This document shows, one piece after another, positions 19,759-24,593 of a stretch of DNA of 64,000 nucleotides. The position numbers and the translations under genes were made by a program. Positions within the stretch are counted from its first letter, which is position 1, and the number at the start of each line of letters is the position of its first letter. The stretch covers positions 184,568 through 248,567 of the forward strand of contig CAVPBH010000018.1 in NCBI GenBank assembly GCA_963701775.1, in the 5' to 3' direction. The DNA comes from an uncultured Chloroflexia bacterium (GTDB taxonomy: Bacteria > Chloroflexota > Anaerolineae > JAAYZQ01). Under the pieces are notes generated by a model that was not told where the DNA came from, did no database searches, and worked only from the letters and a program-made list of their open reading frames with translations.

Positions 19759-21276
19759 TTGACCGAAACCTGGCGCCTGCTCGACACCCCGCCCTGCTCC
19801 GCCGCCCGGAACATGGCCCTCGACGACGCGATCCTCACCGCCCACAGCCGGGGCGAGGCGCCGTCCACCCTCCGCTTCCTCCAGTTCGAGCCGCACTGCA
19901 CGCTGGTCGGCTATCACCAGGCCGTCGAGCAGGAGATCCGCGTCGACTATTGCCGGGAGCACGGCATCGACATCAACCGCCGGCTGACCGGCGGCGGCGG
20001 GCTCTATTGGGACGCCGGCGCGCTGGGCTGGGAGGTGTATGCCCCGCAGGGGCACCCGGCCATCGAGCGCGACGTAGAGGCGATGTACGCCCAGCTCTGC
20101 CGGGCCGCCGTCGCGGCGCTGGGCCGGCTGGGGGTGCAGGCCGCCTTCCGCCCCAAGAACGACATCGAGGTGGACGGCCGCAAGATCTCGGGCACCGGCG
20201 GCACGTCGTTGGGCGGGTCGTTCATGTTCCAGGGGTCGCTCCTGGTCGATTTCGACGTCGATACGATGCTGCGCGCACTGCGCATCCCGACGGAGAAGCT
20301 GAAGGACAAGGAGATCGACTCGGTCAAGGAGCGCGTCACCTGCCTGCGCTGGATCCTGGGGCGCGTCCCGCCGATGGACGAGGTCAAGGCGGCGCTGGTC
20401 GAGAGCTTTGCGCAGGCGCTGGGCGTCGCGTTCGAGCCGGGTGGGCTGACCCCGGCCGAGGAGGCGCTGCTGGTGGAGCGGCTGCCGGCCTTCGAGTCGG
20501 ACGAGTGGGTGTACGGGCCGCGGCGCAGCCTGAGCCATTCGAGCGAGCTGCGCGCCCTCTTCAAGTGCCCCGGCGGGCTGATCCGCGTCGCGCTGGTGGT
20601 GGATCAGAACGGGCGCCGGATCCAGTCGGCGTTGATCACCGGCGACTTTTTCGCCTATCCCCGGCGGGCGATTTTCGACCTGGAGGCGGCACTCAAGCAC
20701 GCGCCGGCCGAGCGCGCGGCGATCGAGCGGATCGTGCGCGAGTTCTTCGAGGCGCATGAGGTGCAGATCCCCGGCATCACCCCCGACGACCTGCTCTATA
20801 CGATCTACCAGGCGCTGGACAAGCAGCGCTACGTGCAGCACGACATCCGCCCCGATGAGGTCAACTCGGTGTTCACAGTAGGCCGGTCGCTGCTCGGAGA
20901 TCACGCGCTGCCAGGTGCTGCTGCTGCCCTACTGCGCCAAGCTACCCGAGTGCGAGTACCGCTACGAGGCAGGGCTGCATCCAGTGCGGCGGCTGCTCCA
21001 TCGGCGACGCCTTTGCCCTGGCCGAGCGCTACGGCCTGCGGCCCGTCTCGATCCAGAATTACGAGGACCTGGAGGAGACGCTGCAGCGGCTGCGCGACGA
21101 GGGCGCCGATTCCTTCGTCGGCTCCTGCTGCGAGGCGTTCTACGCCAAGCACCGCGACGATTTCGAGCGGATCGGGCTGGCCGGCATCCTGGTCGACGTC
21201 GATTCCTCGACCTGCTACGACCTGGGCAAGGAGGAGAGCGCCTACGCCGGGCGCTTTGAGAACAAGACCGAGCTGA
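19759..21276 (+). CDS. lplA: lipoate-protein ligase (LplA family); ORF tail beyond ~20885 is out of frame
   Basis: BPL/LPL catalytic domain (RFLQFEPHCTLVGYHQ, GGGGLYWDAG, GRKISGTGGTSLGGSFMFQGSL) plus the C-terminal LplA domain up to about residue 375. The remaining ~130 residues of this frame are Ala/Arg/Ser-rich and not protein-like. Confidence 0.8.
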   Translation: MTETWRLLDTPPCSAARNMALDDAILTAHSRGEAPSTLRFLQFEPHCTLVGYHQAVEQEIRVDYCREHGIDINRRLTGGGGLYWDAGALGWEVYAPQGHPAIERDVEAMYAQLCRAAVAALGRLGVQAAFRPKNDIEVDGRKISGTGGTSLGGSFMFQGSLLVDFDVDTMLRALRIPTEKLKDKEIDSVKERVTCLRWILGRVPPMDEVKAALVESFAQALGVAFEPGGLTPAEEALLVERLPAFESDEWVYGPRRSLSHSSELRALFKCPGGLIRVALVVDQNGRRIQSALITGDFFAYPRRAIFDLEAALKHAPAERAAIERIVREFFEAHEVQIPGITPDDLLYTIYQALDKQRYVQHDIRPDEVNSVFTVGRSLLGDHALPGAAAALLRQATRVRVPLRGRAASSAAAAPSATPLPWPSATACGPSRSRITRTWRRRCSGCATRAPIPSSAPAARRSTPSTATISSGSGWPASWSTSIPRPATTWARRRAPTPGALRTRPS

Positions 21277-21335
21277 AGCTGGACCTGCTGGAGCGGGTGG
21301 TGCGGCGGGTGGCGGACGGGCAGGGCGGGTGATGC
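20882..21335 (+). CDS. Cys-rich domain protein (possibly DUF116-like), split over two frames
   Basis: The frame opening at 20882 reads ...RCQVLLLPYCAKLPECEYRYE. From ~20973 a third frame reads GCIQCGGCSIGDAFALAERYGLRPV...GSCCEAFYAKHRDDFERIG...KTELKLDLLERVV up to a stop at 21335. The two pieces are joined by a +1 frameshift near 20970. Confidence 0.35.
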
Positions 21336-23461: not shown

Positions 23462-24593
23462 CGCCCCATCTCCCGCAAGAGGGCGGGGAGACCCCGCCCC
23501 TGCAGGGGATGAGGGAGATTATCCGGAGCCCGGACGCGGAGCGTCCCACGCCGGTGCCCACGCTCTGCGTGGGCACCAGAATGGTCTACCAGAGGGGGAA
23601 GCGCAGCGACTGTTTGGGCTGCCGTGGGAGGAGCTGCGGGAGCGGGCCTGGGCGGCGCGCAGGGCGAATTTCGCGCCGTGGCTGGGGCTGGCGGTGCCCG
23701 GGGCGAAGCACTATGCCACCGAAGATTACGTCAATGAGCCTCAGCGCTTTGCGACGGTCAGCCTGACCGGGACGGCGTGCGCGCTCGACTGTGCCCACTG
23801 CAGCCGGCACCTGCTGGAGACGATGTACGCCGCCCCCACGCCGGCGCGGCTGCTGGCCTTGGGGCGCAGGCTTCAGGCCGAGGGGTGCAAGGGCATGCTG
23901 CTGAGCGGCGGCGCCGACCCGCGCGGGTCGGTCCCCCTGCGGCCCTTCCTGCGCGCGATCGCCCGGCTGAAGGGGATGGGGCTCACGATCATCGTCCACA
24001 CCGGCCTGACCGACGAAGAGACGGCGCGCGGGCTGCGCGATGCGGGCATCGACCAGGCGCTCTTTGACGTCATCGGCGACGAGGCGACGGTCCGCGAGGT
24101 GTACGGCCTGCCCTACGGGCCGGAGATGTATGCGCGCGGGCTGGCGATCCTGCGGGATGCCGGGCTGGCCGTCGCGCCGCACGTCGTCATCGGGCTTCAC
24201 TTTGGCCACCTTCGGGGGGAGCTGCGGGCGCTGGAGATGATCCGCGAGACCGGCGCCGAGATGGTGGTGCTGGTGGTGCTGCGCCCCCTGCCCGGGACGC
24301 CGATGGCGCAGGCCACTCCGCCGAGCGCGGAGGAGGTGGGGCGGGTGGCGGCCGTCGCGCGGCTGCTCATGCCGGATACGCCGCTGATGCTCGGCTGCGC
24401 GCGGCCGGCCGGACCGGCCAAGGTGGAGATGGAGCGGCGGGCGGTGCTGGCCGGAGCGAACGTGGTGGCCTACCCTGACCCGGAGACGGTGCGGCTGGCT
24501 GCCGAGCTGGGGCTGGAGACGGGGTTCGTGGAGTCGTGCTGCACGTTGGTGGATGCGCGGAGGCTCGCCGGCAGGCCGGGGGCTCCGGGGTAG
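23442..24593 (+). CDS. radical SAM protein (BioB/LipS-like); true start probably ATG at 23581 with a G-run frameshift at ~23595
   Basis: CALDCAHC (CxxxCxxC) motif. Coherent from ...AQRLFGLPWEELRERAWAARRANF. An ATG at 23581 (MVYQRG) sits in the neighbouring frame. A sixth G in the agggggaag run would join the two frames. Confidence 0.7.
   Translation: MGMGGGDAPSPARGRGDPAPAGDEGDYPEPGRGASHAGAHALRGHQNGLPEGEAQRLFGLPWEELRERAWAARRANFAPWLGLAVPGAKHYATEDYVNEPQRFATVSLTGTACALDCAHCSRHLLETMYAAPTPARLLALGRRLQAEGCKGMLLSGGADPRGSVPLRPFLRAIARLKGMGLTIIVHTGLTDEETARGLRDAGIDQALFDVIGDEATVREVYGLPYGPEMYARGLAILRDAGLAVAPHVVIGLHFGHLRGELRALEMIRETGAEMVVLVVLRPLPGTPMAQATPPSAEEVGRVAAVARLLMPDTPLMLGCARPAGPAKVEMERRAVLAGANVVAYPDPETVRLAAELGLETGFVESCCTLVDARRLAGRPGAPG

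Follow-up and report, generated by a model that had tools for sequence, protein, structure and literature searches.

A probable LipS-type lipoylation operon of an Anaerolineae bacterium and the cysteine-rich domain of its ligase

Lipoate is an essential cofactor, and the route to it through the radical SAM proteins LipS1 and LipS2 is the recently established second way of making it. A cluster of genes at positions 19759-24593 of a 64,000-nucleotide stretch of DNA from an uncultured Chloroflexia bacterium (contig CAVPBH010000018.1; the whole stretch is referred to as the window) raises the question of whether this route is encoded there. It also raises the question of how two oddities are to be read, a cysteine-rich domain spread over three reading frames and a flavoprotein joined in frame to a radical SAM protein. 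An earlier note, made from the sequence alone, had proposed a LipS1/LipS2-type synthase together with a lipoate-protein ligase. This proposal is supported by BLASTP matches to the Thermococcus kodakarensis proteins TK2248 and TK2109, by the ligand residues and by the best NCBIfam matches. The region is very probably a LipS-type operon for protein lipoylation, arranged as is common in Chloroflexota (lpl(AB)-DUF116, lipT, lipS2, lipS1). The pathway (octanoate attachment, then conversion to lipoate by LipS2 and LipS1, with LipT) has already been described in bacteria and archaea. The window holds a further Chloroflexota copy, of the variant whose ligase is an Lpl(AB)-DUF116 protein.

The probable lipoylation cluster

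The G+C content of the window is about 68%. Four coding units lie on the + strand within 4.8 kb, with abutting or overlapping ends, so that the genes for the Lpl(AB) ligase, LipT, LipS2 and LipS1 are found together on one strand. All the elements named in the earlier note (ligase, Cys-rich stretch, flavoprotein and two radical SAM proteins) are present. As sequenced, a 710-aa open reading frame (ORF) at 21329-23461 encodes a geranylgeranyl-reductase-family flavoprotein followed by a radical SAM domain with the motif CTARCAYC, and a 383-aa radical SAM ORF carries the motif CALDCAHC. The parts are as follows.

19759-20893, + strand: Lpl(AB) ligase with a TTG start at 19759; LplA domain at about 19759-20523, LplB domain at about 20524-20874 (Pfam and NCBIfam)
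20895-21332, + strand: DUF116-like eight-cysteine domain at the C-terminus of the ligase (Pfam PF01976, frame-corrected)
21332-22393, + strand: LipT-type flavin adenine dinucleotide (FAD) oxidoreductase, ATG at 21332, GTG at 21329 also possible (TIGR02032 and FAD-binding Pfam matches)
22394-22408, + strand: lipT/lipS2 junction, CCC TCA GGA GGA TGC (alignment to the related locus L005)
22409-23461, + strand: LipS2-type radical SAM sulfur insertase, in frame with lipT as sequenced (BLASTP to TK2248, NCBIfam LipS2)
23448-24593, + strand: LipS1-type radical SAM sulfur insertase (BLASTP to TK2109, NCBIfam LipS1)

The probable ATG of lipS1 at 23448 overlaps the end of lipS2 by 14 nt, and the same start is kept in the related loci L005-L007. 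The N-terminus of LipS1 is variable and of low complexity up to about 23600.

A sequence search of the PDB gave weak BioB/HydE matches only. Biotin synthase was best for the second radical SAM protein (E 6e-9) and there was no match for the first. Because of this the sequences of TK2248 and TK2109 were taken from the supplement of Neti et al. 2022 (PMC9585515), a machine-read text in which minor errors are possible. In BLASTP the product of 22409-23458 matches TK2248 (LipS2) with 32.8% identity over 329 aa (E 3e-56, against E 0.003 to TK2109), and the product of 23442-24590 matches TK2109 (LipS1) with 35.7% identity over 269 aa (E 1e-48, against E 1e-6 to TK2248). The matches are reciprocal. 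The best NCBIfam model for the first radical SAM domain is LipS2 (1.1e-64, 218.8 bits; the next radical SAM model scores 56), and for the second ORF it is LipS1 (8.2e-67, 225.6 bits; BioB 47.1, PylB 24.6, HydE 16.3).

The residues C39/C43/C46, C85, C276, C279 and H178 of TK2248 are all conserved in the first protein, the aligned motifs being CTARCAYC/CSNDCAFC, RVCVG/RICLQ and GCPG...ACNRP/GCPGCNRP (window/TK2248). All of C27/C31/C34, H159, C230 and C276/C277 of TK2109 are conserved in the second, in which ACALDCAHC, VAPHVVIGL, LGCARP and ESCCTL align with the ligand residues. These ligands were implicated by mutagenesis, except for H178, which was placed at the auxiliary cluster by an AlphaFold model (PMC9585515). 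The comparisons support the assignment of the first protein to the LipS2 type and of the second to the LipS1 type. The earlier note had suggested the pair, and the order is now specified.

In Pfam the ligase matches LplA-B_cat (E 4.9e-51, 174 bits) and, just over the cut-off of 24 bits, the LplB domain Lip_prot_lig_C (24.7 bits, E 2.3e-5). The conserved lysine motif, GRKISG, is present in the catalytic LplA domain. The NCBIfam matches (lipoyltrans 3e-50, LplB 1.8e-15) are all below the equivalog cut-offs, with scores of 171 against 280 for TIGR00545 and 149 against 550 for LplAB. The flavoprotein belongs to the geranylgeranyl reductase family (TIGR02032, 195 bits against a cut-off of 158.8), and its N-terminal GxGxxG FAD-binding fold is matched by several Pfam models. 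No LipT-specific curated model was among its NCBIfam matches. The earlier note had placed the flavoprotein outside the described LipS system. This does not hold because LipT, an FAD-binding, geranylgeranyl-reductase-like oxidoreductase, is already named among the parts of bacterial lipS1-slpl(AB)-lipT-lipS2 clusters (Tanabe et al. 2023, PMC10332631). LipT is almost confined to bacteria with lipS1 and lipS2 and has been proposed to deliver electrons for sulfur insertion, the use of NAD(P)H being likewise a proposal (PMC10332631).

The same four functions lie together in the clusters of Thioalkalivibrio sp. K90mix, Hyphomicrobium denitrificans and Thiorhodospira sibirica described by Tanabe et al. 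2023 (PMC10332631). Clusters of this type have already been noted in Chloroflexota (PMC10332631), and no Anaerolineae entries were found in the supplementary tables of that paper. The window differs in gene order, with lpl(AB)-lipT-lipS2-lipS1 instead of lipS1-slpl(AB)-lipT-lipS2, and in the lack of LbpA or sHdr sulfur-oxidation genes nearby. Its ligase, far under the NCBIfam LplAB cut-off as given above, is set apart from the slpl(AB) of these clusters and bears an extra DUF116-like domain of about 145 residues that is not mentioned for them. The radical SAM proteins share 33-36% identity over nearly their full length with LipS1 and LipS2 of T. kodakarensis, including the radical SAM motifs and the implicated ligands. 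However, the lipS genes are adjacent in the window and more than 130 genes apart in T. kodakarensis (PMC9585515), and in the LipS2 of the window six extra residues separate the last two cluster cysteines (GCPGEDGRVAC, where TK2248 has GCPGC). The classical synthase LipA carries out the same overall reaction, in which two sulfurs are inserted into protein-bound octanoate by a radical SAM enzyme with a sacrificial auxiliary cluster. LipA is a single protein with N-terminal CX4CX5C and RSSY motifs, both of which are absent from the radical SAM proteins of the window.

The cluster recurs widely. A scan of one genome per GTDB species with the DUF116-like domain found at least 502 relatives. The best 80 loci of these were analysed by mapping the six domains of the window onto their six-frame ORFs with phmmer. 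They come from Chloroflexota (Anaerolineae, Thermoflexales, Caldilineae, Dehalococcoidia and Ktedonobacter), from other bacteria (Bacillota, with Moorella, Desulfitobacterium and Formimonas; Thermodesulfobacteriota; Syntrophaceae; Actinomycetota) and from archaea (Thermoplasmata, Methanomassiliicoccales and Hydrothermarchaeota). Among the 60 loci with at least 3.6 kb of downstream sequence, lipT, lipS2 and lipS1 are all present in 54. The downstream gene order of the window is kept in 47, where lipT lies directly 3' of the ligase gene. The loci without LipT are mostly archaeal, and those of Thermoplasmata have lipS2 followed by the fused ligase gene. A chance juxtaposition is dismissed, as dozens of genomes across several phyla share this gene order.

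Several observations weigh against the assignment of the operon. LipS2 misses its equivalog cut-off (NF053743, 270 bits) with 218.8 bits, scored on residues 395-683 of the fused 710-aa ORF, and LipS1 misses its own (NF053742, 230 bits) by 4.4 bits. By this standard both are therefore divergent members. The window holds no acceptor protein (GcvH, LbpA or E2), and the search for lipA covers 64 kb alone. Within this length, about 45 more ORFs were scanned with Pfam and revealed no lipA, lipB/lipM, gcvH, E2 or sHdr genes. A scan for the CX3CX2C/CX4CX5C motifs and a phmmer search with E. coli LipA gave no LipA. The only other radical SAM gene is moaA. The remark in the earlier note that no classical lipA was in view is thus borne out for the window.

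The two radical SAM proteins might instead be BioB-, HydE- or PylB-like enzymes of some other pathway, encoded by chance beside a ligase gene. Pfam sees only generic Radical_SAM and BATS domains in them, the best PDB match of the second is biotin synthase and both fall under the equivalog cut-offs. The LipS1 model, however, outscores BioB, PylB and HydE (225.6 bits against 47, 25 and 16), and the LipS2 model scores 218.8 against 56. The earlier note had held that grouping with these families would speak against LipS, and their scores are far lower. The reciprocal BLASTP matches are to characterised proteins, all of the auxiliary-cluster ligands are kept, and the association with the ligase and LipT is retained in those 54 loci. 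This explanation is extremely improbable.

The DUF116-like domain and three inserted bases

The earlier note had described a Cys-rich domain, possibly DUF116. The domain is present and matches DUF116, but in the sequence as given it is spread over three frames and no one of them encodes it whole. The LplA frame serves to about 20893 and a second frame, reading ...EITRCQVLLLPYCAKLPECEYRYEA, covers 20895-20970. The third frame begins at about 20971, reads GCIQCGGCSIG...SCCE...TCY and closes with the TGA at 21330-21332, which shares one base with the lipT ATG. With two bases removed the domain scores 39.5 bits against the Pfam DUF116 cut-off of 25. The match covers positions 42-143 of the 155 in the profile and is confined to the Cys-rich core, positions 1-41 being absent.

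The closest relative found is L005, a short-read Anaerolineae metagenome-assembled genome (MAG) with 86% nucleotide identity over the cluster and partial synteny. L005 and nine other short-read relatives served as the reference set for frameshifts. The L004 contig was rejected as a reference since it is itself full of indels. The cluster contains only three uncompensated indels relative to L005, each of them one extra base in the window.

20891-20895 (about 20894), + strand: frameshift 1, window CTGCTCGGAGATC (CTCGGAG), L005 CTGC-CCGAGATC (CCCGAG)
20967-20971, + strand: frameshift 2, window GAGGCAGGGCTGC (GCAGGGC), L005 GAGGC-GGGCTGC (GCGGGC), between CEYRYEA and GCIQCGGCSIG
C22398, + strand: fusion-making insertion inside the lipT TAG stop, window CTCAGGAGGA, L005 CT-AGGAGGA

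The unusual look of the cluster, with a domain over three frames and a LipT-LipS2 fusion, is caused by these three inserted bases, which are found in this sequence alone. Past frameshift 1 the LplA frame continues as nonsense to 21276. Homologues read C-x6-GC-xx-CG-x-C continuously across the site of frameshift 2. Without the first two of the extra bases the window encodes a protein of 523 aa, collinear with its counterpart in L005, which is also of 523 aa (93% aa identity for the ligase). In the DUF116 part 139 of 145 aa (96%) are identical to L005, while 38 nt differ and 30 codons differ synonymously. This pattern points to purifying selection on the domain and not to an old pseudogene.

The in-frame junction is confirmed, with the Shine-Dalgarno-like AGGAGGA retained at 22399-22405 before the lipS2 ATG (22409-22411). 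The earlier note had left a choice between a real fusion and a lost stop codon. Without C22398 the window would have CCC TAG instead of TCAG, with the stop placed as in L005. In each of the ten short-read relatives whose junction was read, a stop codon separates lipT from lipS2, which has its own M-x-SPEYVQ start, and no LipT-LipS2 fusion was detected among the 80 related loci. The fusion is a window-specific single-base insertion in the lipT TAG, because the relatives carry a stop and the L005 TAG falls exactly at the TCAG of the window.

True LipT-LipS2 fusions are found elsewhere. P0001 (groundwater metagenome) and P0005 (Pseudolabrys sp. MAG) have the same domain order as the window and a similar junction, WIAFP-Y, a short linker and M-x-SP-E/D-YVQ. 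They are only 42% identical to the 710-aa ORF, whereas the nearest relatives of the window are unfused. The clusters of P0001 and P0005 have a ligase without the DUF116 domain (L003).

The Cys-rich motifs of the window are LLLPYC...CxxCGGCSIG...SCCE...TCY. Across 20 aligned homologues there are eight invariant cysteines (LLPYC-K, C, C-x2-C-x2-C, CC and TCY). An AlphaFold2 model of the domain (pLDDT, the predicted local distance difference test score, 85.3) has a flavodoxin/Rossmann-like fold with the Cys loop unstructured. A search with the frame-corrected domain returned 70 proteins, many of them with LplB and DUF116 Pfam domains and many named "lipoate-protein ligase A" by JGI. Clustered at 50% identity, the proteins found in an exhaustive profile search come to 244 representatives, of which 131 reach E<=1e-30. 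The majority are 500-570 aa long, carry the domain at residues of about 350-520 and are Lpl(AB) fusions. LplA, LplB and DUF116 are in a single ORF in 75 of the 80 loci; the exceptions are contig edges, frameshifted long-read assemblies and one partial archaeal gene. Some archaea and bacteria of four or more phyla have the ligase-DUF116 gene immediately 5' of lipT. The domain of the window belongs to a compact subfamily of its own within DUF116. DUF116 (PF01976) is described in Pfam as a family of predicted membrane proteins of unknown function.

In some genomes the domain is fused further. Natural LplA-DUF116-LipT fusions are P0023 (918 aa) and P0219, and natural fusions of LplA-DUF116 to a CO_dh domain (PF02552, similar to CdhB, the acetyl-CoA synthase epsilon subunit) are P0296 (1117 aa) and P0310 (670 aa). 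The CO_dh domain in P0296 and P0310 occupies the place held by LipT in other genomes, and P0296 has two LplA catalytic domains. P0023 lies between lipS1 and lipS2, beside TusA, DsrE and GcvH-like genes. Locus L001 (GCA_964497425.1, contig CAZCCR010000007.1, 6973-17458) contains lipS1, a 918-aa LplA-DUF116-LipT protein and lipS2. The genes 3' of lipS2 in L001 encode TusA, two DsrE-family proteins, a pyridine-nucleotide disulfide oxidoreductase and a 151-aa GcvH-like (LbpA-like) protein. The DUF116 variant therefore occurs also in a context of the sulfur-oxidiser type.

The domain is mentioned neither by Tanabe et al. (PMC10332631) nor by Neti et al. (PMC9585515), in text or supplement, and a literature search found no paper linking DUF116, PF01976 or IPR002829 to lipoate. 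The NCBIfam LplAB and LplB models have 348 and 86 positions, and both therefore lack the domain. The DUF116-like domain is widespread and conserved, yet undescribed in the LipS pathway as far as the literature was checked. The earlier note had also placed the Cys-rich partner outside the described system, as a variant. It is indeed unmentioned in the descriptions consulted, but it is not peculiar to the window.

A possible role for the domain and the reading of the fusion

By analogy with characterised enzymes, the Lpl(AB) part would activate free octanoate (or lipoate) with ATP and transfer it to a lysine of a lipoyl domain or H-protein. As with the T. kodakarensis enzymes, LipS2 would insert sulfur at C8 of the octanoyl-lysine and LipS1 at C6. 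Each would use two [4Fe-4S] clusters, one of the radical SAM type and one auxiliary and sacrificial. The FAD flavoprotein LipT would be the proposed NAD(P)H-dependent source of electrons. The LipS route needs a reductant for the radical SAM clusters in the cell and a means of rebuilding the auxiliary clusters, which are consumed at each turnover.

The DUF116-like domain, with its eight cysteines and CxxCxxC motif, most likely binds one or more iron-sulfur clusters. At the place that holds the substrate protein it might link the flavoprotein to the radical SAM enzymes, as a redox relay or as a relay for sulfur or clusters. The idea of a relay comes from the Cys pattern, the location of the domain after the ligase and before the flavoprotein, its fusion to flavin-type domains of two unrelated kinds and the tight operon linkage. 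A bolder reading, which we hold to be less likely than not, takes the domain for a fifth component of the LipS pathway that has so far gone unrecognised. On this reading it would be a ligase-tethered Fe-S module that passes electrons from a flavoprotein (LipT or the CdhB-like domain) to LipS2 and LipS1 or re-supplies their auxiliary clusters, and the fusion in the window would be a real step in a recurring trend of welding. If so, the system would be independent of general ferredoxin/flavodoxin and Nfu-type carriers, and a function would be assigned to part of the DUF116 family. The domain is also present in Thermoplasmata loci that have no LipT nearby, which counts against a relay role for LipT alone, and serving LipT is therefore not its sole role. 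The main alternative is a structural zinc domain, that is, a zinc-binding or docking module that recruits the LipS enzymes or the acceptor protein to the ligase. Eight cysteines would fit two Zn(Cys)4 sites equally well, in most genomes the domain is fused to the substrate-binding ligase and not to a reductase, and it persists in archaeal loci without LipT. However, CxxCxxC accompanied by a neighbouring CC pair is seen more typically in Fe-S sites, and a CC pair provides cluster ligands in LipS1 itself (PMC9585515). The repeated fusion upstream of flavin-type redox domains, twice to LipT and twice to the CdhB-like domain, also argues against zinc, and we regard this alternative as doubtful.

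As for the frame disruptions, the sequence might simply be correct. The DUF116 domain would then be freshly inactivated by two frameshifts, and LipT-LipS2 would be one 710-aa bifunctional protein, with a possible separate translation of LipS2 from the retained AGGAGGA-ATG. A distant lineage has such fusions in two or more independent assemblies (P0001 in L003, and P0005), which share a conserved linker and keep the LipS2 start M(R/Q)SP(E/D)YVQ. A random error must hit one of about two positions to fuse the frames, and Lpl(AB) without DUF116 works in other LipS clusters (L003; the 348-position NCBIfam LplAB model). On the other side, the 80 loci show no fusion and ten short-read junctions have the stop. 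The broken domain has not decayed, with 96% aa identity to L005 and mostly synonymous differences, and the LplA frame would bear a 127-residue nonsense tail. Several other conserved genes in the window have disrupted frames, for example moaA, which runs past its expected GG terminus. A correct sequence throughout is unlikely, and the two frameshifts that break the DUF116 domain were most likely introduced in the assembly. The fusion taken by itself has about even odds of being a sequence error or a genuine event of very recent date. That an error should fall within a stop codon and join the two genes in frame is improbable in itself, and true fusions with a shared linker exist in the distant lineage; for these reasons the fusion in the window may be real. 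On the side of an error stand the unfused close relatives and the two disruptive insertions nearby. The frameshift sites show no significant association with GATC or CCWGG motifs, which would have suggested basecalling errors related to methylation; a GATC occurs within 4 nt of 2 or 3 of the 8 sites, with about 8.5% as background.

The window adds one more member to a known type of cluster. The lead that the comparison yields is the ligase-fused DUF116-like domain rather than the fusion. Fusions and split domains in assemblies of this kind need comparison with relatives before they are interpreted.

Other genes and frame disruptions in the window

A DUF4062, NACHT and TPR protein of 1080 aa (16416-19658, - strand) lies 5' of the cluster, and a glutamine synthetase gene, glnA (24653-25989, + strand), lies 3'. 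PADLOC recognised only the TPR part of the former. Both genes are absent from the syntenic part of L005, and both flanks of the cluster therefore differ between the genomes. The other genes of the window identified with Pfam include transporters, moaA, moaC, an S58 peptidase and surface proteins, in addition to the NACHT-TPR protein and glnA.

A C-terminal double glycine is typical of the MoaA family. The moaA ORF (8585-9814, + strand, 409 aa) runs about 80 codons beyond the expected end of MoaA (MSQIGARG) and overlaps moaC in another frame. PDB 1tv7 (340 aa) aligns to residues 4-295 of the ORF. One extra G in the run ATCGGGGCTAG at about 9559-9570 would yield IGG and a stop, and the disruption is probably a single-base deletion in the sequence. 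A PIN-like toxin gene (15391-15894 and 15437-15775, both + strand) adjoins a small antitoxin-like ORF (15147-15398). Its conserved middle (IVLLDDALARRVAQAAGLEVWGTLRILL) is out of frame with its N- and C-terminal parts, which suggests two more indels. A very large PKD/BACON/cadherin-like surface-protein gene (40625-45898, - strand) appears to change frame at about 44912, 43971 and 43422, and its domains continue seamlessly in the next frame. The S8 peptidase-kelch gene (57510-60218, + strand) continues in the frame of 60004-60570 at about 60100. The frame disruptions across the window therefore indicate an indel-prone assembly.

Two further observations concern apparent gene pairs. The ORFs 40492-38489 and 38488-36551 (36551-40492, - strand) are in one frame with a single stop codon between them, and represent either two adjacent surface-protein genes or one gene with an in-frame stop. 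The ORFs 31970-32734 and 34770-35888 (both + strand) match the same segments of the His_biosynth and Dus profiles. The second of these also matches Oxidored_FMN, the old-yellow-enzyme family, and the pair could represent a duplicated or partial copy.

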